The position numbers and the translations under genes were made by a program. Positions 9,748-47,500 of a DNA stretch of 64,000 bases are shown here, one piece after another; position 1 is the first letter of the stretch, and the number at the start of each line of letters is the position of its first letter. Source of the DNA: a virus (Duplodnaviria > Caudoviricetes); IMG/VR virus record IMGVR_UViG_3300001598_000001, positions 32,001-96,000 of that record; one strand, 5' to 3'. Below the pieces are notes generated by a model. The model searched no databases, was not told the origin of the DNA, and saw nothing but the letters and a program-made list of their open reading frames with translations.

Positions 9748-10440
9748 TTAATTTAAAATATGCGAATCGACGCCATTATCATTTTCATGGTCGTCGTAAT
9801 CACTGTGATTGGGATCAACAGGTTTATTAAAATGTTTGTCAATATTATCTTGAAAAATTTTTAATTCATCGGTTGAAAATTCATATCCTTTACTTTTTAA
9901 CAAAGTTAGATATAATGGATCAAATTTTGTAATATCTAAAGACGTAATATACATTGGTTCTTCCTCGGGTGCAGCAAAAGAAAAATCTAACGGTACACAA
10001 TTATAAAACATTCTCATCATTGATGCAACCTCTACGGCAGATAAATGCATTTTAGCAATACTGTAAATATTTTTTGGATCATCTGGGTCTAAACAAGAAG
10101 TTAGATATTCATTCCAAAGTTCAGAAGTGTAAGACGGAATCTTTGTGTCATCTTTAACATGTTGCACACACCAGCTTTTAAAATGATCATAATTATTATA
10201 ATAAGTAAAACGACCGATAGCTTCTGTGGCTTCTTCTAATGAAGATACTACACATAATAATTTGTTAGAATTATGTGATGGAAAAATACCATAACAAATA
10301 ACGCTGTCTTTTGCAACAGCAGATGTTTTACCACGCTTCTTGGCTTTTTTAATATTCGATTTTGGCTTACAACGAAACAATGTGGATAATAACAATTTAA
10401 TTTTTACTAATGATATCATACTAATTTTTTCCTCCCACAT
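9748..10440 (-). CDS. Hypothetical protein
   Basis: Up to 230 aa; start may be the Met at 10419. Confidence 0.65.
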   Translation of the reverse strand: MWEEKISMISLVKIKLLLSTLFRCKPKSNIKKAKKRGKTSAVAKDSVICYGIFPSHNSNKLLCVVSSLEEATEAIGRFTYYNNYDHFKSWCVQHVKDDTKIPSYTSELWNEYLTSCLDPDDPKNIYSIAKMHLSAVEVASMMRMFYNCVPLDFSFAAPEEEPMYITSLDITKFDPLYLTLLKSKGYEFSTDELKIFQDNIDKHFNKPVDPNHSDYDDHENDNGVDSHILN

Positions 10441-11116
10441 TTTGAGTATCTATAATATATTTATAAATTATTTTAATAGTATTTGGAGTATAAGGTCCAA
10501 AATATATTTTTTCATCATCTTTTTGAGACTCTAATATATCATGACACCACTCCAAAGTAAAACAAGGAATTGGTTGCTTAGAACCCACTACTTCCATATT
10601 TAAATTATAATGGGAATGCAGGTAACTTGTCAATTGGTTTTGCTGAGTAGTGGACAAACGAGTAATATCTGCTAAATAGAATATAACTTTACGATCGTAA
10701 TATACTCAATGAGATGAGTGAAAAAATTTACGATAATATACTGTAAACGCAATTAATAATTGTAAAATTTTAGAATCAAAATTATGTGCAGGAGAAGAAT
10801 TATATAATTCTTGTGCAAAAGTTATTAATTGTTGTACATCACTATTATATAAAAATATTTGACCTTCATCGGACTGAGCGACATCTAAAAGACAGACGTC
10901 TAAAAATTTATCATAAAATTCAGGAGCTGTTAAACGATCATAAATTAAATTAGCTATTGGAGCAACAGAAGAAACTGGAAACGAATAATCTGTAGTAAGA
11001 ACAGAAATAATATTATTAACGGTTTCTTCTTTAGAAGTGTTAGCAGTTAAATGATTGCGTACTAAACGATACATTTGTTGTCATTCAACTGGTTGTAGTT
11101 CAATAAGTTCTTTCAT
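10421..11116 (-). CDS. Hypothetical protein (TGA=Trp)
   Basis: ORFs 10706..11074 and 10421..10657 join in frame through TGA at 11081-83 and 10706-08; GGAGG RBS; 231 aa. Confidence 0.75.
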
Positions 11117-11118
11117 AA

Positions 11119-14019
11119 TTATTCGCCTCCTTCATCATCATCTTCTTCAATATTTAAATCATCATCTTCCACGTTATTATAGTTTGATCAATTAAACATA
11201 GCTTCAATTAATCGATCTACCGCAATACTTGTGGTATCAGATACATCTTTTAAATAATATTTATTTCCTAAATATTCATATGTACCTTCTTCATTATCTT
11301 TAACAGGTGCAAAAGTTGGACCAGGAGGAATTAATTCAACAATCTTTTCTCCTATAATTTCCCAAGCAAATCCTCAGTTAAAATTAGACAATGTTTGAGA
11401 TAGTTTGTGACAATAGAATAAGAACTCCTCATATGATAAACCAGTATCTAATAATTGGATTTGTAATTCTTTGATAATAGCATCATAGATATTAGAACGT
11501 AATTCAATATAGTCATCATCAAAAGTGTCCTTATTATATAATGCAGTTAAACGTTTAATTTGTTTTTTAGATGTGTAGGATGAATACATCTTTTTAACCT
11601 TTGCTAATTTAATTTCGTCAAAACTATTTTCATAATCTTTTTCATATGTTGGTAGTTTTGATATTTTATATTTCTTATTTCCTGTTTGAACATCTTTTGC
11701 AAATTTAATATCAAAATCAATTGATTCAAATTCACGACAGAGTCTATTCATGGTACAATCAGAAGTGATTAAAGGAGAATATTTTTGATAACGACGAATT
11801 AACATTTTTTCTTCTTCTGTTTGATTTTCTTTCTTTAATAACTTTTTAAATTTAATTCCAAACATATCACGACTGATTTGATTATAAGAATCTTCAAAAC
11901 GTTTAAATTTTTGATTTAGTTCTGGATATAAATATCTAAAGAAATAAGGTTTTTTAGCAACAACAATAGCATTGTTTTTAATCTTTTTTAAACGGGTTTC
12001 AGCATCGTCTTCAGGATCTATTTTTTCAAATTTCTTTCATTCTGAAGGTAAGAATGGTTTATCTGCTCCTTTAATACGGTCAATTTCCTGTCCAACAATT
12101 TCACGTAATAATTTAATACGAGTCATGATGATATTATATTGATCTTCATGTCCTGGTTTATTAAAGATTGCAGCCATTGCATAAAGTATAGTTGCAGTAT
12201 TAGAAAATCCACCAACTCCAGTACCAAAACCTTTCATAACTGTTTTTGTAATATTGTTAACCGTCATTTTTGCTGGAACGGCTAATCCTTTTTCATAAGT
12301 GATAATACTGTGATCTTTATGAGAACCTTTAATAAAATATTCATTATCAGTAGATAATACAATATCTCCATCAAAGTCAGCGTCTTCGGCTCTAAATACA
12401 GCAGTGTCGTATGTAGAAAAAACAATACCACTGTTTAAATAACGCAACCAATAATCTGCTTCGTCATTATGTAACAAAACTTTACTTGGATTATGTTCAT
12501 GGACATCAATCATTGGGCTACGACATAAATCAACGATATCAGCATTTCTTTTATTTCAGAACGATGACCAAATAGTGTCTTTTGGAACAATACCAACTGG
12601 ATCTAATCCCAAAGCAGCTTGACACTGAGCTACAGGATCGCTAACCATAAATTGATAATTTCCTTTGATTCATATTTTTCCTAATTTAGCATGATTAATA
12701 GATTCGGCAATATTTTTATAAATTTTATATTGAACATAACTATCTTGTAAAAAATCAACATTTTTCACAACAGCTTTCATTGCTGATGTTTGAGCAATAC
12801 TGTACATTGAATCATAATCTACGTCATTGTCTTTTACACCAAATGAATATAATAATGTTGGTAATAATTCACCAGAACAAATTTGTTGAATTCAATTTAC
12901 TGTAGGTTGAATTAATTGCTTAATATCTTCTTTACTCAACTCAAGAGATTGAATATATTGATAATTAGCTAAAACATATTCTTCATCTTGACGTTTGTTG
13001 TATCTAGCTACACCTCAATGAATTTCACCTTGTTTAGCATATTCACAATATTCTTGCCAACTATTATAATATTTATAAGTTTTAAATTGTGATTCGGAAA
13101 GTAAAACATCAATATCATTGATATTGTATTCTACACCCCAACGATCTCTAATGGTGAAGATATTATGTTTATGAGCATATTCTTTAAAATCAAATGTTGC
13201 TAAATTACCTTTAATAAAACAAGATCTTGCTACAAATGAACAAGGGGTATAAGATAAATTCATATCTTGTGCCCAAAGCTCAGCAAAATAAGGATCAATT
13301 AATCCTTGTCCATCAGCACAGTTTAATTCTAAGTCCATAATTCTTGGATCAATATATGATTTACCATTTTCATCTTTACAAATAAAATCCACTTTTTCGT
13401 TTGGTAAAGTACGATAAAAATCTTTTATTACACAAACTCTTGGTGTTCTTACCCAAAGAATAGAGGAAAAAGCTAATGCAAAATAAGCACTATACTTAGC
13501 TAAAACAAATTGAGAAGTTTTTTCATCTAATCCACAATTTAATCTTTTAACTAAAAAATCATACAATTCTTCATTTACAAAAGTAGCTGTGTTACGTCTA
13601 ATTTGTCCAGACCCAGAACATAAATAAACATAATGAATTCCATTAACATTAAATCCATTGACACGAAATTTATGAAAGTCAGATTTTTTACCGTCTAAAT
13701 AAACGTTAATAATATCTTTAACAAATAATTTTTCAGTAATCGCTCTATCTAAAATATGTGCTTCTTTATACTTACCTTGCTTTTTATAAATATGCATGGT
13801 ACTACGTAATTGACTAATTTTATTAAAAAGTTTATTATGTTCTTGATAATTTCCATAGTAATATCTGATTTGTTGAAAAATTAGATTATCACCAATTGAA
13901 ACAATATTTTCTTCTTTTTCTCCACGTGATATGGTATAATTTTCAATTTGACAATTGTTAGCAACTATAAACGAAGCAGGTAATTTAAAGACTTGATATA
14001 AGTTTTGACAAACTGCCAT
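11119..14019 (-). CDS. YonO-like single-subunit DNA-dependent RNA polymerase (cellular RdRP fold), TGA=Trp
   Basis: Three track ORFs fuse into 966 aa through ~7 TGA. Motifs CADGQG, FIKG, RSP, DADFDGD, VGGFSN, GQEIDRIK. Context matches SPbeta yonO. Confidence 0.9.
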
Positions 14020-14030
14020 TGCTTTCCTCC

Positions 14031-14396
14031 TTAATTATTATCAATTGAAATTCAATCAGAATCTAATGCATCTAAATTTTCAGCATCATATTTTTTATAA
14101 TATATTTCTGTGTGTTGTATCATAAAATCTATCATCTCAGATAATTCTTTGTCGTTTTTAACATAAAAAACATTATCATAAATATTATTATTTTTATAAT
14201 TATTTAAAGGTGATATATTTAATAAAATAGTGTAATTGTTTTCTTCGAATGGTGTATTATTATTTAAAATAAAAATATATTCTTTGTCTGAACTAGCATC
14301 AATAATATTAATGTTTAATCAGGTATTTTGTAATTTTTGATTATATTTATTATTAATTTCATTTAACACGGTTTGTATTTCTTCTGGTGTAATCAT
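14031..14396 (-). CDS. Hypothetical protein (TGA=Trp)
   Basis: MITPEEIQ..., 121 aa with 2 TGA, GGAG RBS, TAA stop directly before the RNAP RBS. Confidence 0.65.
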
Positions 14397-14487
14397 AGTT
14401 ACCAATCTCCTCAAAATTTATATTTTATATCATAATTTGTTTGATTTTTTAATTAACTATATAATATAGTTAACCTCATCTATTAAT

Positions 14488-14516
14488 ATTATATTGGGAA
14501 AAATTTTATTGTGCAA
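14488..14516 (-). promoter_or_regulatory. Sigma70-type promoter for the leftward RNAP operon
   Basis: TTGCAC-17 nt-TATAAT with CCCAA immediately upstream of the -10. Confidence 0.7.
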
Positions 14517-14826
14517 GTAAAATTGAATAAAAAGAAAGAAAAAAAAGAAAAGTAACAAAAGAAATAAATAAAGAAATAAAAAAACAACTCATACTTCGTA
14601 TTCGTTGTAGTGCCTACGGCGTGGAGTGATTTTTTAAATAACTCATATATTCGTTATTATAAAAAATAACGTTATATTTGGTGGTGATTAATTATTATAT
14701 AAAATATATAAATAATATTAAAGATAATAAAAAAATTTTTAATTATTTTAATAATAATTAGATAAAAAACCTAATGTTTAAAAAAAGAAAAATAAAAAAA
14801 AGAAAAAAATAAAAAACTATTTTATC

Positions 14827-14855
14827 TTGACATTCTTGTAAAAACCCATTATTAT
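14827..14855 (+). promoter_or_regulatory. Sigma70-type promoter, probably giving a leaderless mRNA
   Basis: TTGACA-17 nt-TATTAT; ATG 8 nt downstream with no SD. Confidence 0.7.
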
Positions 14856-14863
14856 ATTGGTGT

Positions 14864-15694
14864 ATGATACTTGATTGGTATAGTTATTGTGAAACAGTTC
14901 ACAGTACAAAAAAATTATTAACAAAAGATCCTGCTGATCACAAGAGTTTATTTAAGCAGGAAATTTTCTATGTTCGTTATTTAATTTATAAAAAACATTA
15001 TACTAAATTACAATGTTATACAGAGTGGCGTAAAATTAAAAATGGAAGAGCAAATATTTTGAAAAAAGATCCCGATCAATTAGCTATAGAATTTTTTAAT
15101 ATTTATCAAGCCGCTAATAGGATAAATAGAATTCCTGGTCCTTTATCTGAAATTATAATTTTTAAAGATGAAGTAGATTATTTGAATTCTCTTCAAGTTC
15201 CTAAATGGATTAAAGAATTTTGGATGGCAGAGCTAATATATTATAAGTTTGCTACACAAATTTATAGTCAGGTAGAGTTAACACCAACAGTATTGTCTTG
15301 GTGTCTTAGACAGGTTACTGATTTAAAAGCTTCTAATAGAACATTTTTTGACCATCGAGATCAAATCGGAAAATACAATGCTCAGTTTGAAGTTATTAAA
15401 ATTAACAATTTAAACAATCATGAATATAATATTATGACACCAAAATTTTTAAACACCGACAATAAAAGTCCTGTATTAATTATTAATAACTTAGATCAAA
15501 TTAAGACAGGAATTAAATTAATTAAAGATAATTATGAAATTTGTGAAAATTGTGGTAAAAAATTTATTAAAAGTTCCAAGAGTCAAACACAATTATGCAC
15601 AGGATGTTATAAAAAATATCGTCGAAAATACAAAACCGAAAAACAAAAAAAATATGACGATCAAAAAAGTCTTGAAAAAATCAGAGAAAATTAA
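14864..15694 (+). CDS. Zn-ribbon-containing putative DNA-binding or regulatory protein
   Basis: 276 aa, C-terminal CENC...CTGC plus basic tail; no TGA. Confidence 0.65.
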   Translation: MILDWYSYCETVHSTKKLLTKDPADHKSLFKQEIFYVRYLIYKKHYTKLQCYTEWRKIKNGRANILKKDPDQLAIEFFNIYQAANRINRIPGPLSEIIIFKDEVDYLNSLQVPKWIKEFWMAELIYYKFATQIYSQVELTPTVLSWCLRQVTDLKASNRTFFDHRDQIGKYNAQFEVIKINNLNNHEYNIMTPKFLNTDNKSPVLIINNLDQIKTGIKLIKDNYEICENCGKKFIKSSKSQTQLCTGCYKKYRRKYKTEKQKKYDDQKSLEKIREN

Positions 15695-15817
15695 GTTTTC
15701 TGGACAGCTAAATCATGTTTACTCTTTTATGGAAGAGGAGTAATAAAAATTGGTTTTATATTTATATAAAACCTTACGAAATGAAAAGAAAAAAGGATAA
15801 AAAGGAGAAATAAACAA

Positions 15818-17053
15818 ATGACAAAAAAAGAATTTTTAGAGTATGTTGACTCTTTTGATAGAGATACTGGTGAATTTACTGAAGAAGAATTATATGCTAT
15901 TGGAACACAATATAAGGAATTACCAGTTTCAGAAAAAAATTGGGAAGAATTGGTTAAAATACTTGGTGTTAATAAAACAGGTGAAAATTTTAGAACTTGG
16001 ATTAAAAGCAGACAATATGCCGATGGAACAATTAAAAAGAATATTCAATTATTATCTGGTCAGACAGTTGAAGATTTAAGTTTTCCAGAAGCTGAAGAAA
16101 AAATTGAAGAAATTAAAAGAGATTTATACAAACAACAAGTAAAAACTAGAGATACTTGAAACGCTTATAGAAGAGATGTACGTAAAGATGCTCGTGAAGA
16201 AAATTTTTATGATATGTTTGCGGAAGCTGTTAAAACATATCCAGCATTACCTCAATATAAAACATTACCAGTTATTTCTACTGATAACGAGGCTGTAATG
16301 TTATTATCAGATATTCATTTGGGTATGGAAATTAATAATTTCTTTAATCATTATAATTTAGAAATTGCTAAAAAAAGATTTGATACTTATATTGATGAAG
16401 TTATTAAAATGTGTCAATTACATCAAGTTCGTAGATTAAATATTTGTAATCTTGGTGATTGTATTCACGGTATTATTAATGTTACTGGTAGAATTGAAGC
16501 CGAAATGAATGTAATTGATCAAGTTATGCAAGTTGCAGAAATGTTAGCTCAAGGATTAAATAAATTACAAAATGCAGCTTCTGAAGTTATTTACAGAAGC
16601 GTTACTGATAATCATAGTAGAGCTATGGCCAATTTCAAAGAAAATATGGAATCTGAAAATCTTAGTAGATTAATTGATTTTTATCTCAAGCCAAGATTAA
16701 AAGATACTTCTATTATTTTTGCTGAAGATAATTTAGATTACGATATTTCATTCTTTGAATTATTAAATGGTCAAAAGGTTATTTGTTCTCATGGTCACCG
16801 TGATAATATTAATGTAGCGGTACAAGGATACTTAGGTGCCACTAAACAATTTGTTGATTATATTTGTTTAGGACACTTCCACGAAAGCAAAATGAAATCG
16901 TTCCAAGGCGCTAAAGTAATTGTAAATGGTAGCGTTTGTGGTTCTGATTCTTATGCTCAATCTAAGAGATTATATGGTGATCCAGAACAAACTTTAATAA
17001 TTATAGATAATAATTCAGTTATTATAGATAATGTTAAGCTAAATATTCAATAA
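15818..17053 (+). CDS. Calcineurin-like metallophosphoesterase (YonJ-like), TGA=Trp
   Basis: Two ORFs join through TGA at 16157; motifs SDIH, LGD, DNH, SHGH, GHFH; 411 aa. Confidence 0.85.
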
Positions 17054-17056
17054 AAC

Positions 17057-17084
17057 AAAACCTCTCGATATCGAGGGGTTTTTA
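17057..17084 (+). terminator. Intrinsic terminator
   Basis: aaaacctctcg-atat-cgaggggtttt followed by a T run. Confidence 0.7.
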
Positions 17085-17106
17085 TTATAAAAGGAAGTGA
17101 AAAGGT

Positions 17107-18204
17107 ATGATAGAACAAGAAAAAGAAATAAATGAAAATATTGAAGTTGCTGAAGAATTAGAAGAAAACGTTACAGAAACACACATTGAGACGCCAGAAC
17201 ACCAAGAGTTTGCTCAATTATATTCTAAGAACAACGAGGATTTTGCTAAAGCTGTTTTTGAATATTGTTTTTTACACAACCTTTTCTTTCATGAAGTTTA
17301 CGTTAATAAGATTATTAGTAGTGATATAGAAAATAAATTTTTTAATATGCCTGAATTATATATTGATATGATTAATAATGATTTTCGTTGTAATGGTTTA
17401 AATTTTTTTGATCAATTAAAGATTGAGAATTTTGAAAAAATTTATAGTGAAGATTTAAATTTATTAATGTTATCAGAAGATGATAAAAAAAACAGACAAG
17501 CATGTCTTGATATTATTGGCTATGATCCTTTTAAAGATGAAGCTATTGAAGATCGTCCACAATTATATAGAGATTTAACAGGTATGTTGACTGATGCAAT
17601 GAGAAAAGATATTGCTAAGTCTAAAGCTGCTTTATCAATTGTTCGTTCATATCAAAATATTGAAAAATATCAACGTAAGGTTACTGAACTTACGTCTAGT
17701 GGTAAAGTTGATGAAGATACTCAAAAAACTTTAGATCAATATTTAAAAGTTATTGCCACCATACAAACCACTATTAACCAAACAGCAGAAAAAAATAATT
17801 TTACTGTTAGAGGTATTGGTTCTAATGGCAAGGGTATGTTGTCAGATGTTATGAATCAAATAGAAGACATGGGAATTGATGAGGGTATTACAAATTTTTA
17901 TGATATTGAAACCTCTAAATCTATTGAAGAAGTTGCTAATATTAGTTTTAAAGCTCAATTAAATCAATTAAATTTATCTAAAACTGATTATGTAGAGATT
18001 TTATCTGCTCAAGCACAAGCTGTTAAAGAAGCACAAAAGACAGCAGCCAAAGCAAATGAAGCATTACGATTAGCTAAAGAAAAAATTACTAAACAAGAAT
18101 TGTTAATTGAACTTGAAAAAGATTATCGTAAAAAAGGAATATCAGAAGAAGAAATTACAGAGTTTATTGGTAGAGAATATAAATTATATGATGGAGAAGA
18201 ATAA
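17107..18204 (+). CDS. Pre-terminase protein (terminase small subunit / YonG-like)
   Basis: 365 aa directly upstream of the large terminase; GYDPF motif and helical body. Confidence 0.5.
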   Translation: MIEQEKEINENIEVAEELEENVTETHIETPEHQEFAQLYSKNNEDFAKAVFEYCFLHNLFFHEVYVNKIISSDIENKFFNMPELYIDMINNDFRCNGLNFFDQLKIENFEKIYSEDLNLLMLSEDDKKNRQACLDIIGYDPFKDEAIEDRPQLYRDLTGMLTDAMRKDIAKSKAALSIVRSYQNIEKYQRKVTELTSSGKVDEDTQKTLDQYLKVIATIQTTINQTAEKNNFTVRGIGSNGKGMLSDVMNQIEDMGIDEGITNFYDIETSKSIEEVANISFKAQLNQLNLSKTDYVEILSAQAQAVKEAQKTAAKANEALRLAKEKITKQELLIELEKDYRKKGISEEEITEFIGREYKLYDGEE

Positions 18205-18206
18205 TT

Positions 18207-20126
18207 ATGATTAGTATTTATAAACGTAAAATTAATAATAATTTAACCATACGTGATTATGACTCTATGAAGAAATATATTCGACTTATACAATGGGGAC
18301 GTAAGAATCCTGTACAATTTATAGAAAAAATTTTTGGTATCACTTTAATGGATTATCAAAAATGATTAATTGCAGAGTCTTGGACCAAAGAGTATGTTGT
18401 TTGAGCTTGTAGTCGTAATGCTGGTAAATCATTTTTAATTGGTTTGTTTATTATGGCTCGTAATTTGTTATTTCCAAAATTACAAACTCAAATTATTTCT
18501 GAAAACTGACAAACTTGTAATGATACTTTTTTAACAATGGAAAAAATTGCCACAAACAATATCAAAACCATTATTAATGACAATACTGTATTTATTGATG
18601 AATTATATAAAACTAAATCTGATTCAGACGGATTTATTCACGATGCCAAAGGTGGAAACAAGTGTAAATTATCAAACGGATCATCTATTTCGGCAATTGC
18701 TGGATCATCTAGATCTGCCAGAGGCCGAAGATCAAACTTAAATGTTTATGATGAAGCTGGTTTTATTGGTAAAGATACTTTTGATATTACTGAACCTTAT
18801 ATGGGTCAATCTTCAGAATTTAAATTAGGTTCTTCTTATGATCCAGAAGTTTACCCAAGAGAAATACCTAATATTCGTTTGTATATTGGTTCAGCATCTG
18901 ATACTAATTCATTGTTTTATGAAAAATACAAAGAAGGGGTTAAACAAATGTTAGCTGGAAGTAATAAATATTTTGTTGCTGACATTAGTTGTGAAATTCC
19001 TAAACATCCTACTGTTAAAGGAAAAGAAGCCAAACCTTTGCTTTCTCAAGAAGAAATTGATCGTAAGATGAGAGAAAATGAAATTGTCGCTATGAGAGAA
19101 TATTACAATATTTTTGATCATTTTGATTTAGAAGATTCTATTGTAACTCGTTCTGACATTTTTACAAATACTGAAACATTTGTTCCAGCAATTACTTGGG
19201 GTGGTAAAAAACATAAATATATTATTTCATATGACCCAGCATCTAAAAACGATAACGCGCCTGTACTAGTTACAGATATGTTTAAAAATGAAGATGGAGA
19301 AATTTGTGGTCGCTGTGTCCATATGGAGAATTTGATTGTTACTTATGGTGATGGATCTAAACGCCCCATGAGAATTGATGAACAAGTTCAGAGATTACGA
19401 GAAATGATATATGAATATAATGGTCGAGAAAATATTGCACCATATGAAAATGTTGTTGTCTTATTAGATTTTGGTGTTGGTGGACAAGCTAGTTCTATTT
19501 GTCAAGAGTTATGTAAAGATTGGACCGATAGTAAAGGAAAGGTTCATCCAGGAATTTATGATGAAGAAAATGAATTTAGCAGATTATGGGCTGAAAAATT
19601 TCCTCATGCAGTTCCAGGGTGTCTAAAAATGGTTGAGCCACGTAAATTTAGAAATGATTTATTTACATCTGCAAAAACATTGGTTCCAATGGGTGCTATT
19701 AAATTTTCACCAAAATGCCCAAAATATGATATTTTGGTTTTAGATGATGGTACTGAAAGAAAATTAGGTAAATCTGAACTAAACTCTTTAATTCAGATGG
19801 ATTTAATGAAAGAAGAAATAGCTTCAATTGTTAGAATCAAAAACCCAACTGGTAATATCACTTTTCAGTTACCACCAGAAAAACGTGGTAAAATGCATGA
19901 TGACCGTTGTTATGTTTTTGTATTAGCATGTTGATGGATTCATCAACAGAGAACTAATGAAACTTTTGGAGATGATGGTGTAGGTTTAGATTATAGTAAA
20001 TTAATCGGTGCTACTCCTGTTAGGTCTCAAGTTTCTAATGATGATCCTTGATTAAAAGGATTATCGGGAAATAAATCTACTATTAAAAGGAGTCCGTTCC
20101 AGGGTAAATCTCCATTTAGTAGATAA
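18207..20126 (+). CDS. terL: Terminase large subunit, TGA=Trp
   Basis: 639 aa. Walker A VV[W=TGA]ACSRNAGKS, ARGRR, Walker B VYDEAG, nuclease SYDPA...HDDR. Confidence 0.9.
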
Positions 20127-20373
20127 ATTTCATTTTAATAATTTCAGTATAAAAAATATACTGTTATTATATATTATTAATATCATTGATGTACAGATGA
20201 TATCGCTTTTTATTGTAAAAAATAAAAAGAATAGAATATATGTTGCCCTTAAATATTTATTATTTTTGGGCAACAGTGTAATATTATTAATTAATTGATT
20301 AAAACAAATGAGAGTAGTTGTTTGTTTTACTGAATTAATTAATATATTTAAGAAAGTAAAAAGGAGTAGAGAT

Positions 20374-20766
20374 ATGATTTGTTGTAAAATTATTTTTGAT
20401 TATCAAAATCCTCAAGGGGATTTTAAATTATTATTAGAAAAATTAGGATCTTATGGTGATGTTCTATGAGATCAACATACTTTATATTTTAGTGACACAT
20501 CTGGCAATATAACTGAACAACAAATTGTATCGGTTATACAAAGCTGTAAATATAGTAAAATTTTTATTGACAGTTATGATCGTAACAATCAACCAAATTA
20601 TGAAAACGATTATGTGATGGGATGACTTACAGATCATTTAATGAAAATTTCTTATAATTTATGTGAGCAAGCTAGTCAAAAAACTTTTCAAGACATATCT
20701 AAAGGATTAGACATTTTAAATGAACAATTAGATAAACAATTAAGTGAACAAAAAAACAACATTTAA
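20374..20766 (+). CDS. Hypothetical protein (TGA=Trp)
   Basis: 130 aa, AGGAG RBS, two TGA, TAA stop. Confidence 0.65.
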
Positions 20767-20795: not shown

Positions 20796-22628
20796 ATGGA
20801 AAATGAACAAGAAAAGAAAAAAGTTGGACGTCCAAAAAATAACCCAATAGTTCAAGAAGTCGTCGATGAAAAAAATCAAGATCGTTTAGATATGGAAAAA
20901 CGATCTCAAGAAGAATATATCACTATTGATGATTTGGGAAAACGTTGGAGTGCTACTTTTCAAAAAATTGCTGCATTAGATCAAACTACTGGTATTGGTA
21001 CTGTAGCAACACAATGAAATAAATTAAATCCATTTTTACAAAATCAAAGAATTAAAAATTTATATAGTACAGCACGTACTTATAACAAAGCTAATATTAG
21101 TGAATTTTTAGCTAATCCAGCTAATTTTGAAAAAGAGTTACGTAGTCTTAGCTGGGCTAATAGTAGTAGTCAACAAATTTATTATAATATTTTAAGACGT
21201 GCTAGTGATATTCCATTATATAATTATTATTTAATACCAGAATTATTAGATATAGAAGAATATAATGATAAAGATTTTCAATCTGAAGATAGACTAATTC
21301 ATGAATGGGTTGAAACTTTTAATATTCCTAATACTTTTAAAACAATGGCTTTAGAAATTAAGAGAGAGGGAAAGTCTAGCTATTTATTACGAAATAAATT
21401 TATTGGAGAAGGTAAAAACAAACATGTTGGTTTTACTACTTTACAAAAGTTACCAAGTGATTGAGTAAAAATTACTGGTAAATCACAATTAGGTTTTACC
21501 ATCTCATTTGATATGATGTATTTTCTTAACATTGCTAATTCACCAGCAGATTTTGGTGATTTTATGGTCAAAGCTTGAGCTGATATGGTAAATAAAGGTA
21601 TTGTTACTAATACTGACAACCAAGGAAAATGAGAATTTAATTCTGGTAAAGCTGCAAATTATAGTTTTAATTATGGTAATAATAATTATGCTTCTACGAT
21701 TGAAATTATGAAGAAAGGTCGTAAGATGAACTACATGTTCTGGTTAAAATTACCTTTTGATATTTGTTATACTTTTGGAAGTGATAATTCACAACCTTGG
21801 GTAGCGCCAGATACTATGGGATTAATGTTGAAATTACAAGAATTAACTGACTATGGACAATTAGCTGGTTTAATAGCTAGCACACCTTTAACTGCTGTAT
21901 TAACTGGAGAAATTGAAACAATTGATAATCCAAGAGCTGGTAAAAATGAATCAGTATATAGTCCAGAAGTATTACAAGGATATATGACTCAATTTAATCA
22001 AGCCACATCAACAAATGTTGAAGCCTGGTTATGGCCAGCAAAAAATATTAAATTACAACAATTATCTTCAGATGTTAATTCATCTGAAATAATTTCTTCA
22101 GCAACTGAAAATTTTGTTTCTACAGCTGGAGAAGGTGGTTTAACTATTACTACTGAAAAACCTAACGTTGCACAAGTTACTGTTACAAAACAATTAGCTG
22201 CGGCACAACAAAATTATGTTACTTTACAATTTGAAAATGTTTTAAATTATATTATTAAACATAAATTAGGTTTTTCTTATGCATGAAAAATTAAAATTTG
22301 AGGAGATGTTTTTAATCACGAAAGCGATCGTAAATTTTTAAAAGAAGTTGTCGCTAATGGTAATATTGCATTATTACCAAAACTAATGTCCGCAGAAGGA
22401 ATTTCTATTCGAGATACTAAAGCAATGACGGAGTATATCAAAACATTTGATTTTTATAAAGATTTTATGACTTATACTCAAACAACTCAAATTGCTCAAA
22501 AAGAAGAAGATGAAGCACAAGGAGCGGTTGGAAGACCTGGTTTAGACGATGAAGAAATAGACAATGATGCAACAGCTGCATCTAAAGAAGCTGGTACTAA
22601 TACTAGTGATAATCGTGACCAGGAGTAA
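20796..22628 (+). CDS. Portal protein, TGA=Trp
   Basis: Three track ORFs in one frame fuse to 610 aa; position after terminase; C-terminal GRP motif typical of SPbeta-like portals. Confidence 0.75.
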
Positions 22629-26006: not shown

Positions 26007-27834
26007 ATGAAAAAATATTTTGGATACACAAAAAGCTCTGATGAAGTTTTTAATTCATTAGTTGAAAATACCCTTGAATTAGCTAGAGAAGCTCACGAAG
26101 GTAAAAAATCAGCAAATTATGCTGAAAAGAATTCTGACTTACTTGTTGCTATGGGTAAGAAAGCTATTGAAGGTACTAGATTTGAAGCTGATTTTGAAGC
26201 TGAAGGTTTAGCTATCTACAATAAGCCAATGGTAAAATCTAACACCACAGTTAGAGAAAACTTCAACGCAGTTATTGCACAAGTTGTTACTGCAATAGTT
26301 CCTGAAGTTGTCAACGATACTTTCTCACAATTTATCGCTGAAGTTCACCAAGTTGGTTATGGTGAAACTGCAAGATTCATTATTGAATCTAACGATTTAT
26401 TCAAAGTCAATTCTAAAGCTGAAGGCGTTAGAAAAGGCGTTGATCAACCTATGTTTGATGATGAAATTACTGTAAATGCAAAACCAGTCACAGTCGATTA
26501 ACCTGTTTACTGTCAAGTAAACTAACCAGTCGGCATATACAGAAATGTGTATGTAGTGCTAAGAGTTATTAGTCTTAGCCAACACTATCTTAATTGCTGG
26601 AAATCCCTAAAGCTATATAAACTACAACGTAAAACCTATTATTAGGTTTAAGCGTGAATGTTACGAAAGTAGAAAAAATTATATAGATGGCGCATGGTCA
26701 AATCCTAAACGCATATCCAATCATAAAATGGGAAATCAGCATCCAAGCTCGAAAGAGAAGGTTCAACGACTATCTCCCGTGAGGAGAGTAGGATCAAGTG
26801 ATCCGAAAGAGATAGGCCTTAACGTGTCATGACGAAGGATATAATATAGTCTATGCTTATATGAGAATATAAGAAGTTCACTAAAGAACTGTGTGAAAAA
26901 TAACGAATTCACATGAATTATGAAATATTTGAATATATGAATAAATAATCTTTATATATATTACAATTAAAAATAAAATAAACCCACTATAAAATGAAAT
27001 ATAGTAGTGGGACAGCAGGTTCGAAACTGTTTTCAATGACTTATCTAGTTGAATTACCACTATTATTATATTTACCTGATAAACAGTCTGCTGGAGAAAA
27101 TAAACGTATGCATGATTTAGGTTATCACAAACTTTGTGATTGTGGTACAAAAACTTGGGTGTATACTAAATATTGCAATTAATAACAATAATTAATTGTA
27201 GTATATATAAAGATTATTAAATATATTCAAAATTTCTCAGTGTTGTATTGATTGGTACCCATTTGCTGCTGGAATTTTCGACATGGGTAACTTTGCCCTA
27301 AAGATCGGTAGATCTTTCATGGCATACATTTTCTTAAAGGCTGTTAGAGGTATGACAGCTGCAACTAGTGCTTATGGTGCTGCTTATACTGTTGCTGGTG
27401 TTACACCAACTTTATTTGGTACTTTAAGAGAAAGAGTATCAGCTGCTAATGGTGGTATGAATGTTATTGCCATTGGTACTGCTGTTGCTTTAAGCCAATG
27501 TTCATTAGGTGGAAACTATCAAGTTGAAATTGGTGAAGAAATGAACAAAGTTGGATACTTAGATCAATATCTTGGTGTTCCATTAATTGGTTTAAAGAAC
27601 GTTTTAGTTCCAGGAACTACTAACACTACTGCTCAACTAGCTTTACCAGATGACAAGATTTATATGATTCCTGTCGGTGGAAGCAGACCAGTTAAGATCG
27701 TCTTCGAAGGCGACGAAGTTAGCGTTATGTTCAACCCAGAAACTACTTCTGACAAGAGATATGGATTATCTGTTGAATTAAGAGTTGGTGTTGAAGCTGT
27801 CTTAGGTGCGAAGTACGGAACTATCACTTTATAA
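26007..27834 (+). CDS. Major capsid protein, spliced (exons 26007-26498 and 27241-27834)
   Basis: Exons join in frame as ...KPVTVD|CCIDWYPF..., giving 361 aa; position and composition fit an HK97-type MCP. Confidence 0.8.
26499..27240 (+). mobile_element. Group I intron (IA-like) in the major capsid gene
   Basis: Exon ends in U and intron ends in G. P1 is GUCGAU/GUCGGC (26529-34) with U.G. Core elements AATTGCTGGAAA, AATCAGCATCC, TTCAACGACTA, AATATAGTCT. Confidence 0.85.
27077..27182 (+). pseudogene. Remnant of an intron-encoded homing endonuclease (C-terminus only)
   Basis: KQSAGENKRMHDLGYHKLCDCGTKTW matches QAAGEVARMHNKGYYRICDCGTKTW at the end of 27962..29497. Confidence 0.8.
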
Positions 27835-38183: not shown

Positions 38184-39191
38184 ATGGGACGTAGTACAGT
38201 ATATAATGATAATTTGACTCAAAATTGGTCAAATGTATCACAACAAAATAAAAGATTAGTTAAAGACTTTTTACAATATTGTAAATCCAATGATAAAAGT
38301 CCACAAACTCTTCATCAATATGAAGAGTGACTTAAAGTTTTCTTTTGTTGAAATTTTCAAGAAAACGAAGATAAATTTTTTATTGATTTAAAAAAGAGAG
38401 ATTTTGTTTATTATTTTGGATGATGTAGAGAGTTAGGAATGAGTGCAAATCGTATTGCCGCACTTAAGTCTGTTCTTAGTAGTTTATCATCTGAAATTGA
38501 ATTATTATATGAAGATTTATATCCTAATTTTCATAATCAACTTAGAGGATTAGAACCTGTACATATTACTACTGTTCGTGAAAAAACAGTTTTATCAACA
38601 GAAGAAATTAATAACATTCTACAAACATTGGTAGAAAAGAAAGAATATCAATTAGCTTGTTATTTAGCATTGTTGTGTGCTTCTGGTGCTCGAAAAGCAG
38701 AAATGCTACAAATGCGACCTGATTTTTTCACTGAAAGCCACGAAGTTTTCGATGGATATATGTATTGCACTCCACCTATTAGATCTAAAGGAAGGGGAAA
38801 ACAAGGAAAAATTATTAAAAAATATGTGATTAAAGAATTTTTTAAACCTTTTTTTGATTTATGAATGGAAGAACGTGAAAAAGAAAATATTACATTGTCG
38901 AATTTATTTGTAACTAAAAAAGATGGTCAATACGTGGAAGCTACCACATCAACAGCTAATAGTTTTGCTGCAAAAATTTCGAAAATGTTTAATATAGATT
39001 ATTATAACCACTCTGGTAGACATTATTTTTGTACATTATTAAAATCAATGAATTTACCAGATGATGTTATAGTACAAATTTTTAGTTGAAGTGACGGATC
39101 CATGGTTAAAATTTATGATGATACGCCAGTCGAAGAAAAATTAAATAAATTTTTTATGCAATTTAAAAAGGAAGAAATAAAAGGAGAATAG
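38184..39191 (+). CDS. Tyrosine recombinase (YomM-like), TGA=Trp
   Basis: 335 aa. SGARKAE, RSKG, HSGRH, IFS[W=TGA]SDGSMVKIY give an R-K-H-R-W-Y catalytic set. Confidence 0.85.
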
Positions 39192-40220: not shown

Positions 40221-40294
40221 GTTGATTTAATTTAATGGAAGAATAGTTGTTCAGTAAACAATGCACATTGGTTCGATTCCAATAATCAACGCCA
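40221..40294 (+). tRNA. Atypical tRNA, anticodon AGT (Thr by anticodon; identity uncertain)
   Basis: GTTGATT/AATCAAC acceptor, ATTGG-TTCGATT-CCAAT T arm, GTTGT-TCAGTAA-ACAAT anticodon arm, G-CCA end; C at position 33. Confidence 0.65.
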
Positions 40295-40311: not shown

Positions 40312-40340
40312 TTGACAGTTTTTTAATTACCCAATATAAT
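40312..40340 (+). promoter_or_regulatory. Consensus sigma70 promoter of the tRNA(UCA)/ncRNA operon
   Basis: TTGACA-17 nt-TATAAT with ACCCAA before the -10. Confidence 0.8.
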
Positions 40341-40547: not shown

Positions 40548-40642
40548 AGGGGCTTAGTGTAGTGGTAGCACACGAGACTTCAAATCTCGGGTAACAGCGT
40601 CCAAAGCTGCGGGTGTGGGTTCGATTCCTACAGCCCCTGCCA
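40548..40642 (+). tRNA. Opal-decoding tRNA-Trp(UCA) with a 25-nt variable region
   Basis: AGGGGCT/AGCCCCT-G-CCA acceptor (Trp-like), GTGT/GCAC D stem, CGAGA-CTTCAAA-TCTCG anticodon arm, GTGGG-TTCGATT-CCTAC T arm. Confidence 0.9.
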
Positions 40643-40650
40643 TATATTTA

Positions 40651-41183
40651 AACAGTATAAATTTAAATATATTAGATCTCGGTGTAAACCAGACAATCTG
40701 GCCGAGAGTTACAAAGTAATGGATAGGTTTAGAGGATACCCTAAACTGAAAACCAAGATTATTATAGTGATATAATATGAGAAGATACCAACTAGTATCA
40801 ACAACGGGTAACGTGCTAATATAATATCGGAGATAAAACCTAAATCCAACGCTCTCGTAATAACTCGTCCATATGCTCATACCAGGTGGTGCTGATGGTC
40901 AACATATGGAAAAACCAACAAGAGAGAATGCCTTGATGTCTAGTAAGTAGACTATAAGTTGGGATAAGGACAAGTAGCTGAATGGCGGTTCGTATGAAAA
41001 AGTACATATTTCAAAATCTGAAAGTCGGTGAAAGTTAGAGGTACCCAGTCCTCTCGATGGTAAAAAGGGCAAGAAGCTTTATGGTCGCAACTTAAAGCTC
41101 AGACTTGTTCTATTCGTAGTTTAACAATCAGATATTATAAGTGGTAAGACGAAGGTCTCTAATACATTTAAATTTATACTGTT
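40651..41183 (+). ncRNA. Large structured ncRNA, ROOL-like
   Basis: ~530 nt closed by a 26-bp near-perfect terminal stem; many internal hairpins; no credible ORF; tRNA-adjacent. Segments resemble ROOL from memory only. Confidence 0.65.
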
Positions 41184-42891: not shown

Positions 42892-42907
42892 AATTTTCCA
42901 TTATAAT
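42879..42907 (+). promoter_or_regulatory. Sigma70-type promoter for the second RNA cluster
   Basis: TTGAGA-17 nt-TATAAT with TCCAT before the -10. Confidence 0.55.
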
Positions 42908-43168
42908 AATATTAGATAAAAATAGGTGAAAACATACATAACTTAACAATAGACCCTATAATAGTATAAGATGGTAAGAGGCTTGTACTGATAGTTATGA
43001 CGAAAGTATAATTCAAGATGGAGATTAGATCCTCGTTCAATTATATCACATCGGTGAAAAGGGTTTCCCTATATTAGGTAGACAAACACCGTAAGAAACA
43101 TCTATTATTTGGTGAACTGTTGAAGGTTTTAAATGTAAGTTAGGTTGACGTGCTTACAGCCAAATCAT

Positions 43169-43776: not shown

Positions 43777-43780
43777 TTAT

Positions 43781-44332
43781 TAAAGTGGTGTTCCGCTACC
43801 ATTAAAGGCGAATTATGATGATGAATTAAAATTGGTGAAAACAACCAACCATTTCTCAGGTAGAGATAGACTGAATCGTTAGCGAAGGATAGGTCGAGAA
43901 CAAGTGTGATAGCATGCATACCAGAGGACCGAATGAGGGTGCATGTGCTGGCTAGAGGCAGAGAGCCCTGAAGAATATGCCGATGAGGAACTTGCAACTA
44001 ACTTTGATATTTTATGTGGTTGAGAACAAGTTTAGGTAGATGCTGAATTCCACGTTATAGCGAGATTACAAAATCACGTGCGAACCCATAAAGCAGCCAA
44101 AAATATCTCAATTCTTCTGAATGATCGTTGACGGTCTATAATAGATAGGACTTATAGAAGAGAGATTCAGCCAAGAGGTGTTTGTGAGAAGGAAAACTCA
44201 CCCTATCAAATAAACCTCTCAAATTGGAGCAAAGTAGTGACCACTTACGGCATAGCGGAATGGACTGCTGTATAAAAGGTCGGTGTTATTCCTACCCGCT
44301 TTCATGGCAATGCAAAAAGGAATTACGTTTTA
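43781..44332 (+). ncRNA. Second large structured ncRNA, family unassigned
   Basis: ~550-nt GC-enriched interval without a credible ORF; nested helices such as CTGAATC/GATTCAG and GATATTTT..TGGTTG/CAGCCA-AAAATATC; ends 6 nt before tRNA-fMet. Confidence 0.6.
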
Positions 44333-44553: not shown

Positions 44554-47500
44554 ATGAAAGAAAAAATAATTGAATATACAAACCTTAGTGATATTGATTT
44601 TAGTAAAAATAGCACGTTATACAAAGATATTAGTAGTATGGATAAGAAAGTCCGTGCTTTTGACGCTAGATCCAATGAAATTAATGATAAAATAAGTAAA
44701 GAAATATTCAGAGACGCTTTAGTAAGTGGTGGTAACAATAGTATTTTAGATTCTTTACATGGTATAGAAAACCTATGTCGTAGTAACGGAATTCAAACTA
44801 AAGTAACAGTAACAAACGATGGAATTAGTTTAGTGGCTTATGATGAAAATAATCAAGTTGTACCAGTTATCTCTTATATGGCTGGTTCAGATGGATTAGT
44901 AATTCGTGATAATTTAGTAGTATTAGATTCTTTGTATTATAGTCAAAATAATGCCACTGGTAAATCTCAATTAATTAATGGAACAGTTGCTTATTTAAAT
45001 GAGTTTAATAAAATTTTAAAAACTAATTGAAGTAAGTTAAAATCACAAAAACAAGATTTTAGTTCTATTTTACAGTTTGCTCGTAATGAAGCTAATAAAC
45101 AAATTCCTATAACTAATCAAGGAACTTATAAATTTGTTGGTAATTCTGGAAAAGAGATTTTATCAAACTTAAAAAAACAAAAAAATGTTTTTAAAAACAA
45201 GAGTAAGAGTTTCGATGTTGATCCTAGTGCGTTTTGAGAAAATATTATTTATGACACTGTTAGAAAATCGGTAGCTCCTGGGGTTACTTCACAAGATCAA
45301 TCTTGAGCACAAAAAGAACGTGAAATTCGTCCAATAATAGAAAAACTTGCTAAAGAAGCTTCTAAACTACCTTCTGTAAAACAAGCAACTCGATTATTTA
45401 GTGAAGATTATGATATTAGAAAATTAATTACTAAAGACAGTAATCTAAAAGCTAAGATTATGGAAGCGGTTAGATTTTTTTCTGAAATTACTTGAAATCA
45501 ATCTAATATGTCTGAAGCTGATGCCCATAAAGGTAAAGTGGCAATATTTGGCGATAGTAGAACTGGTATTTCTGGTCAAGAATCAATTACTAAAAAAGAT
45601 CAAGGTAGTTCATATTTAAAACGAACTAAAGCTGGTCAACACAATACTTATGCACATGTAGCTGGTGGTATTTTAACTTCTAAAACAGGTTTTAAAGGTA
45701 ATTCTGCAGATTATGATTTATTTACTATTGCTCCTGTTGAATCTGAAGCAATTTCTGAAGGTATGAATAATATGTTTAAAGCAGCCGTAGAACACGAAAA
45801 GGTTGCTCGTGAAAACATTAAAAAATACGGAGAAAATATCAAACACAAGGCAGAATTAATTAAAATATTAAAAAATAAACTTGATACTATTAAAAAAGAT
45901 GACTATAGTGATTTAGAACATGAAATGATTTCTCAAATTATGGAAATTTATGAAAATTATCGCACTGTTCATGATACAGGTAATAATCAAGTGCAATTTG
46001 ATACTCCTGAAGAATTTAGAGATTATTTAGTTAATGAAGCTAATAAACGTTTTGCTCAAAAAGTAAAACAACGCAAAACTTATAATAAAGAAAGAAAGAA
46101 ATCTTTAACTAGTGAAATTGCTGATATTAAAGTTGCAAACACAGACGCTAAATATAAACAAGCAGCAGCTAAAGCTTATCATAAAATTAATGAAGAATCT
46201 GTAGAAGATTTTGCTTTAGACAAATTGCGCAAACAATATCATATGGATTTTAATCCTAATAAGCCTCATTCTGATGTGTTGGATGATCAAATCATTATAG
46301 TTAAAGAAGCATTAGCTGAAATACAAACACAATTAATGCAACAACAAGTTTTTACAGAAAAAGATATTAAAAAAGCTATGAAAGCTGGAAATTATCAAAT
46401 TTCTGAAGAAGCTGTGTTGGCTAAAATAAACGAACAACGAAAACAGCAAGGTTTAGATCCTGTTTCTATGAAAGACCTAAAAGTTGGACTTAATAAAGAA
46501 AAAGGTGTATTTACAGCACAATATACTGAAGATTTTATTATCAAAGAAGGAACTAAATTATTAAATTATTTAGGTAGAGAACGTTGATCTTCTTCAAGTT
46601 TACCAGCAGATGTAATGAAATCTGTCTTAAAAGCACAAGCACGATTAATTGCTTCTGTTAAATCTGGTACTAATGATGTTAATGACACTAAATATCAAAA
46701 AGAATTTGCAAAAGCCAATTCTATGTATTTTGATTCCAATGATAATCTTAAAGTTGCAGGCGTTAGTGGAATTAGTTCATCTATTAAAGGTGAAAAATTT
46801 TATGGTTGAAGCCAAGGTGTTATGTCCTATGCTTTAGGTGAATTGTTTAATCAAAGTTATAAAAAGAATATTTCTAATGGTCAAGAAAAAGCAGTAGCTA
46901 AGTCTGAAGCTATTAATAAAGTTCGTGAAAAATGAAATGAATCTGTAGATAAACTAGTCGCACAAGGACAATTAACTACAGAACAAGGTGAAAAATTTAA
47001 ACAATTAGTTACAGGTGTTAATGAAAAAACTGGAAAAGTAAATTTTAATACTGATTCAAAAATTACAGATTTTGTTAATAAAAATTTAGTACATTACGTC
47101 AAGTTAATTAATACTGTTTACAAAGATAATACAGGCCGTAAACTTGGTACTTATAAAAATAATAAAAATGAAGGAGAAGTTTTTGAACTTGATCCTTATG
47201 CTTTATATGATATAGGTATTAATCCGTCTATAGTTGCCGAGGGAGATTGGGATCCACATAAGAGAGTTTCAATGGCTCATAATGAAAGACAAATTAAAGA
47301 AAGAGAAAATGAACGTTTAGCAGCTATGGGTAAAGACGTCACTGTTGAAAGAGCTATGCTTGATGTTCAATATGAACAAGCTATTGAAAAAAATACTAAA
47401 TATCAAAATAAATTAAAAGCTGTTAGAGACGCAGTTACTAATAATTTTAATGCTGATAGAATTGATGTTGAAGACAAAGATAAAGATATCACAGCTATTG

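Follow-up and report, generated by a model that had tools for sequence, protein, structure and literature searches.

Can a phage that reassigns a stop codon use this change of code to control the transcription of its late genes as well as their translation? The question is raised by a gene for a YonO-type RNA polymerase (RNAP) that carries several in-frame TGA codons and lies at positions 11119-14019, minus strand, of a 64,000-nucleotide stretch of phage DNA (the window). This window comprises bases 32001-96000 of a complete 131,489-bp IMG/VR genome (IMGVR_UViG_3300001598_000001, here G000) from gut or rumen, which has terminal repeats and 29% G+C. A preliminary description of the DNA had proposed a cascade in which accumulation of a phage tRNA with the anticodon UCA permits full-length RNAP and then late transcription. 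The explanation that we favor, with a probability of roughly 0.55, retains this outline: synthesis of the RNAP would depend on tRNA(UCA), both are preceded by the same promoter class, and the enzyme would feed forward to the late genes. Such a circuit bears on the question of whether phage stop-codon recoding serves regulation or arises as a by-product.

Translation of the RNAP interval with table 11 yields fragments, whereas reading TGA as tryptophan results in a single open reading frame (ORF) of 966 codons, encoding a single-chain, two-barrel polymerase. In-frame TGA is found at codons 335 (window 13015-13017), 376 (12892-12894), 450 (12670-12672), 488 (12556-12558), 661 (12037-12039), 882 (11374-11376) and 944 (11188-11190), all on the minus strand. 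The DFDGD metal-binding loop of the beta-prime-like barrel occupies residues 548-552 (window 12364-12378, minus strand), so that four of the seven TGA codons precede the catalytic loop; the earlier estimate of about seven, four of them ahead of DFDGD, was therefore exact. The protein matched the Pfam RdRP family PF05183 (32.8 bits at a curated cut-off of 23.8, E = 4e-8) and phrog_8308 (E = 4e-89), and tblastn recovered the annotated yonO genes of SPbeta-like Bacillus phages (E about 4e-30) as well as RNAP genes of Enterocloster, Thomasclavelia and Clostridium phages. Across 27 orthologs, D548, D550, G551 and D552 are invariant. An AlphaFold2 model based on these orthologs (predicted local distance difference test score 85.2) retrieved RDR2 and QDE-1 in Foldseek (E 1e-17 to 1e-12), together with the phage RNAPs P74 gp62, P32 gp64 and phi14:2 gp66 (E 2e-6 to 4e-5), while sequence searches of the PDB with the protein and its profile returned no match. 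The gene encodes an intact YonO-type RNAP whose single chain contains two double-psi beta-barrels.

SPbeta YonO transcribes the late (structural and lysis) operon (Forrest et al. 2017, PMC5467207). Both enzymes are single-polypeptide, two-double-psi-beta-barrel RNAPs with a DFDGD loop and membership of the Pfam RdRP family, and each gene adjoins the early/late boundary in a large (about 130 kb), siphovirus-like genome. By this homology, the G000 enzyme would perform DNA-dependent RNA synthesis and is probably the late-gene transcriptase. Unlike YonO, it carries seven reassigned stops, is known here from sequence and aligns to its counterpart at about 27% identity over half its length; moreover, its gene is oriented divergently from the late block instead of lying upstream of it.

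TGA reads as tryptophan in G000, because four of the RNAP TGA codons (W335, W376, W488 and W661) fall at tryptophan columns that are invariant in the 27-sequence alignment and encoded by TGG in standard-code phage homologs. Genome-wide, 186 in-frame TGA codons are present, and TGA terminates no gene. Their distribution is strongly partitioned. Between 1.6 and 42.4 kb of the genome, we counted more than 160 TGG codons, with in-frame TGA confined to a few short, probably spurious ORFs; from 42.4 kb onward, there are more than 150 TGA codons, and TGA makes up 63% of the tryptophan codons in TGA-using genes. An early gene set is hence readable in the standard code, consisting of a block of about 40 kb and promoter-delimited TGA-free islands, and TGA-free genes include those for a RecD-like helicase, a DnaE-type polymerase, DnaB, DprA and a sigma factor. 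Searches of the genome for release factor 1 (RF1) and a tryptophanyl-tRNA synthetase (TrpRS) found neither, leaving tRNA(UCA) as the sole code-changing part found.

From the TGA-free block and the standard-code relatives described below, we infer that the host uses TGA as a stop. A host that itself reads TGA as tryptophan (code 4) would abolish the code switch and require another cause for the TGA-free block; 29% G+C is compatible with Mollicutes-like hosts, and some of the related contigs fall in bins of uncultured Bacilli. However, the promoter-delimited TGA-free genes hold more than 240 TGG and zero TGA codons despite AT pressure, a strong promoter precedes the tRNA(UCA) that the phage itself encodes, its closest relatives are standard-code or TAG-recoded, and TGA never serves as a stop, as expected of a code-switching phage. 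We consider a code-4 host very improbable.

The suppressor tRNA was identified by ARAGORN at window 40548-40642 on the plus strand (Rfam 59.9 bits). It has a 25-nucleotide variable arm, and its acceptor and discriminator are tryptophan-like (A1-U72, G73). The variable arm forms a hairpin with a CAGC/GCTG stem and a seven-nucleotide loop, GUCCAAA, which contains the normal tryptophan anticodon CCA and may mimic an anticodon towards TrpRS. The suppressor of the TGA-recoded relative G001 (G001 contig 45455-45554; L027:5455-5554, minus strand) shares GUCCAA, the acceptor stem and the T arm with it but differs in the D arm. Twelve nucleotides 3' of the G000 tRNA lies a ROOL RNA (window 40654-41177, plus strand; 233 bits, gathering score 99), and the two are probably carried on one transcript. 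Just 5' of the suppressor tRNA promoter, a second tRNA-like gene (window 40221-40291) reached 54.7 bits in Rfam; ARAGORN required a lowered threshold to report it, as Thr(AGU) with C at position 33.

Within a three-gene unit with TGA in all members, the RNAP takes the middle position; the unit heads an otherwise TGA-free leftward block. The unit is preceded by a sigma-70-type promoter at window 14488-14516 (minus strand), TTGCAC-17-TATAAT with a phage-specific CCCAA just before the -10 element, whose core CCCAATATAAT spans 14488-14498 on the same strand. The transcription unit of tRNA(UCA) has a nearly identical promoter (TTGACA-17-TATAAT, window 40312-40340, plus strand), with the core CCCAATATAAT at 40330-40340 on the plus strand, about 200 nucleotides 5' of the tRNA, and the 17-mer CCCAATATAATATTAAT is common to both. 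Generic sigma-70 scanning is uninformative in AT-rich DNA (65 matches against 50 +/- 7 expected, i.e. no enrichment), but the 11-mer core is enriched, with five copies in the window against 0.13 expected. Extended to TTG-N15-CCCAWTATAAT (TTGNNN, 17-bp spacer, TATAAT), the class has 21 copies in the genome, nearly all intergenic. In 14 of 16 cases, the first protein gene after such a promoter is TGA-free; the remaining two promoters precede the RNAP operon and a 54-amino-acid ORF of doubtful status in a structured-RNA region. TGA-bearing late genes lack this sigma-type class.

Between the promoter and the RNAP lies the first operon gene (window 14031-14396, minus strand), a 121-amino-acid ORF with two in-frame TGA codons, no TGG and no family match. 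The third gene (10421-11116, minus strand; 231 amino acids, two TGA) is the last TGA-bearing gene of its strand; comparison with its syntenic counterparts in PMBT24 and BUCT082 detected no similarity, so no conserved cofactor can be claimed. Inside it, at 10604-10633 (minus strand), we located an internal member of the same promoter class (TTGACA-18-TATAAT, with CCCAT), 164 nucleotides 5' of the gene with which the TGA-free part of the leftward block begins (9748-10440, minus strand; 230 amino acids, three TGG). Given this position of the promoter, the code boundary at the TGA-free gene is a transcription-unit boundary too. The divergent region separating the RNAP operon from the rightward genes (window 14520-14860) has 23% G+C and A-rich and T-rich runs of the AAAGAAA type; its counterpart in G001 contains short tandem repeats.

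The promoters of the RNAP and the tRNA had been described as host-type. Both are indeed sigma-70-type and of one class, but their assignment to the host is uncertain, because the phage encodes a sigma-70-family factor of its own and each phage has its own promoter flavor. The factor, encoded outside the window at genome 19037-19891 (minus strand), comprises 284 amino acids with regions 1.2, 2, 3 and 4, is TGA-free and has divergent orthologs in the related genomes G001, G005, G006 and G007. The sole plain consensus promoter (TTGACA-17-TATAAT) without the CCCA element is found at genome position ~21906 (minus strand), about 2 kb upstream of the sigma gene, which suggests that the sigma factor forms a tier preceding that of the RNAP. 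As promoter flavor differs from phage to phage among the relatives, the CCCA-containing class may be read by the phage sigma instead of host sigma-A.

Together, these elements suggest the following cascade. Sigma-dependent transcription, with either host sigma-A or the phage factor, would supply early mRNAs, the tRNA and the RNAP mRNA. In a standard-code host lacking charged tRNA(UCA), ribosomes would halt at RNAP codon 335, far 5' of DFDGD. Full-length polymerase would appear only after charged tRNA(UCA) prevails over release factor 2 at seven UGA codons in succession, so its yield would scale with about the seventh power of suppression efficiency. That the seven TGA codons confine synthesis of the enzyme to the presence of the phage tRNA is very probable. 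Finished RNAP would then transcribe the rightward structural genes, by homology with SPbeta YonO, and the late mRNAs would require tRNA(UCA) once more, forming a coherent feed-forward loop in which the tRNA serves both the late polymerase and the late messages. Meanwhile, the internal promoter would restart transcription for the TGA-free genes downstream of the operon and may shield them from polarity as long as the operon is untranslated. In phage T7, through its RNAP, and in SPO1, through the gp28 and gp33/34 sigma cascade, an early-made phage polymerase or factor likewise turns on late genes. The switch in these phages is purely transcriptional, whereas G000 combines a phage sigma with a phage RNAP, and translation of the polymerase would additionally need a change of genetic code.

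We then asked whether this arrangement recurs. With the RNAP alignment as query, IMG/VR, metagenome contigs and GTDB genomes yielded about 140 related loci, nearly all of them standard-code; the only recoded relatives were G001 (TGA) and G006 (TAG; IMGVR_UViG_3300029705_000055, also recovered as L048, L065 and L084). Terminal TGA codons in L002-L004 and similar loci were rejected as signs of recoding, as they are true stops of standard-code phages, and the RNAPs of the close standard-code relatives G005, L046 and L047 have no in-frame stop. G001 (144.9 kb) encodes an RNAP of about 65% identity and a homologous tRNA(UCA). Its RNAP carries seven TGA codons within the same three-gene unit, and the ortholog of the 121-amino-acid gene carries three. 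A promoter class specific to G001, CTTGACT-N14-16-TCTATAAT (15 copies against 2.3 in shuffles), precedes both the RNAP operon and a tRNA-Gly/tRNA(UCA) pair and also occurs inside the third gene.

The 133-kb genome of G006 carries tRNA(CUA), and reading through TAG lifts its coding density from 72% to 89%. In 42 late genes it has 131 in-frame TAG codons, and TAG is largely missing from its early block. Here, the RNAP contains a single TAG, at codon 20 in the conserved N-terminus and identical in three contigs from different samples, and the small upstream gene contains two. Promoter cores of the form CCACATATAWT lie ahead of the RNAP operon and the tRNA cluster; this motif is only suggestive, because it was derived from those same two sites. 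Reassigned stops are thus present in the RNAPs of both recoded relatives, in a weaker form in G006. The RNAP tree leaves G000 and G001 unresolved at the base of a ten-row clade with good support, which also includes the standard-code L049, L047, G005, L046 and L061 and the TAG-recoded G006.

Dozens of RNAP orthologs (L061, L072-L089, L093, L095 and many metagenome loci) are interrupted right after DFDGD, with the ORF ending at residue ~545-587 and insertions of 0.2-1.1 kb. These interruptions likely reflect the insertion of introns, inteins or homing endonucleases, or else gene splitting of the kind known from phage Goe14.

Several observations weigh against a regulatory role of the RNAP stop codons. 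Just three recoded genomes, G000 included, were found among the ~140 related loci. TGA accounts for a share of 0.58 and 0.60 of the tryptophan codons in the RNAP operon compared to 0.63 in late genes, and owing to this equality the codons look like neutral drift in a gene in which TGA is permitted. G000 and G001 share three TGA positions where 3.5 are expected (12 shared tryptophan columns, P = 0.88). The G006 RNAP has one TAG where six are expected at late-gene density (P = 0.018), a density near that of G006 early genes. Within the recoded zone, the association of the promoter class with TGA-free genes is only suggestive (Fisher P = 0.08), and a k-mer search of 15 regions upstream of TGA-bearing genes for a late promoter motif returned only AT-rich words. 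A query for public sequencing runs covering window 10400-20399 listed none, RNA runs included. Position, frequency and the G006 data fit a stop-tolerating gene that is not needed early at least as well as a tuned timer.

These same data feed a possible, though less probable, alternative, in which the dependency is real but has no regulatory effect: the RNAP is unneeded before the tRNA is abundant, and TGG-to-TGA drift under AT pressure is simply tolerated. Late timing would then be set transcriptionally, by the phage sigma factor and promoter strength, with the tRNA accumulating faster than the RNAP mRNA is translated. The chance-level overlap with G001, the late-like TGA frequency, the single TAG in G006 and the presence of the sigma factor all agree with it, and so does the shared promoter class, since tRNA and RNAP would both switch on together. 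On the other hand, the steep dependence of yield on seven successive UGA codons would make some delay hard to avoid, the RNAP operon is the sole credible TGA-bearing unit behind the promoter class in G000, and the arrangement recurs in three recoded phages, an independent TAG recoding included.

The sigma factor also bears on the role of the polymerase itself. Together with the host core enzyme it could drive the late genes, making a sigma-driven late programme a live rival, and the YonO-like protein would then have another job, for instance as a late-made, virion-packaged polymerase of the crAss-like kind or in priming, its TGA codons merely marking a late product. A complete sigma-70-family factor in the TGA-free block that is conserved in relatives, the late-like codon use of the RNAP and the failure of the above k-mer search to find an RNAP-specific late promoter are in line with this. 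Moreover, crAss-like virion RNAP genes, which likewise encode QDE-1/YonO-like two-barrel proteins, also contain in-frame reassigned stops (Yutin et al. 2021, PMC7886860). In contrast to the logic proposed for G000, however, the crAss enzyme is made late, packaged and transcribes the early genes of the next infection; its recoding is a consequence of late synthesis and implies no order in which the polymerase would follow the tRNA within one infection cycle. The closest characterized homolog of the G000 enzyme, SPbeta YonO, is a non-virion late-gene RNAP (PMC5467207). The RNAP operon stands behind a sigma-type promoter, unlike other TGA-bearing genes, and an injected polymerase would not be needed, as the early genes have sigma-70-type promoters. 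Another job for the protein is therefore improbable in our view.

Set against these alternatives, the tRNA-gated feed-forward reading is carried by different degrees of confidence in its parts. The proposed cascade stood with respect to the identity of the RNAP, the tryptophan meaning of TGA, the lack of a full-length product under the standard code and the promoter class common to the RNAP operon and the tRNA. Regarding recoding as a means of control, the arrangement recurs in G001 and, more weakly, in G006, whereas the chance-level TGA overlap and late-like frequency speak against a selected timer. Accordingly graded, the chances that the TGA codons truly affect timing are about even, and that they constitute a selected timer is doubtful. 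Equally tentative, or slightly more so, is the broadest version, according to which recoding in this clade acts chiefly through the polymerase: a series of UGA codons, or a TAG at codon 20, in the RNAP operon would convert rising suppressor tRNA into a sharp, ultrasensitive late-transcription switch, the tRNA would next license late translation, and this feed-forward timer would have arisen independently with TGA and TAG.

Stop-codon recoding of late genes in gut phages was reportedly described by Ivanova et al. in 2014. Late-gene regulation by recoding is an established hypothesis (Borges et al., bioRxiv 10.1101/2021.08.26.457843), and G000 resembles the recoded gut phages of that study in its standard-code-compatible early set, recoded structural genes and suppressor tRNA; the idea that a code switch times late expression is common to both. 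The TGA-recoded Jade phages of Borges et al. carry TrpRS and RF1, both of which G000 lacks. RNA polymerases are nowhere mentioned in that work, and our literature search found no publication combining YonO with recoding. The G000 arrangement extends known phage stop-codon recoding and is no new principle. What it would add is a compact three-part circuit of a suppressor tRNA, a tRNA-dependent single-chain RNAP and late genes needing both. If the circuit operates as proposed, a genetic-code change controls transcription in addition to translation, and synthetic biology would have a natural precedent for locking a polymerase with a suppressor tRNA.

The genes presumed to be transcribed by the RNAP lie in a TGA-rich late block with interspersed TGA-free islands (window 15818-63217, plus strand), which includes an exonuclease gene. 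On the same strand, TGA is used in the genes for the terminase (18207-20126), the portal (20796-22628) and a 3911-amino-acid tape measure with 28 TGA codons (44554-56289). An RNAP module in the N-terminus of the tape measure (window 44554-49653) was considered and rejected: BLASTP of residues 1-1600 was not significant, and hhalign of a YonO-like profile against residues 1001-1700 gave a probability of only 4.5%. Long, G+C-richer intergenic stretches at window 26502-27282, 42892-43166 and 43777-44065 resemble structured RNAs, none reaching the Rfam gathering score.

The preliminary description had also suggested that the gated polymerase could act as a lock in a lysogen, an idea for which we obtained no support. 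A search for prophage copies gave none; the exact N-terminal fragment turned up on a single further assembly contig, where no bacterial flank was seen. The only tyrosine integrase/recombinase (Pfam Phage_integrase, window 38184-39191) itself carries five in-frame TGA codons, whereas in the recoded Garnet and Topaz phages (Borges et al.) integrase genes avoid reassigned stops. Finally, a small TGA-free serine invertase with a Resolvase domain is encoded at genome 107128-107766 (minus strand), on the opposite strand within the late block. The core of its promoter is the same 17-mer as in the RNAP operon and tRNA promoters, and the gene may mark an invertible tail-fibre segment.

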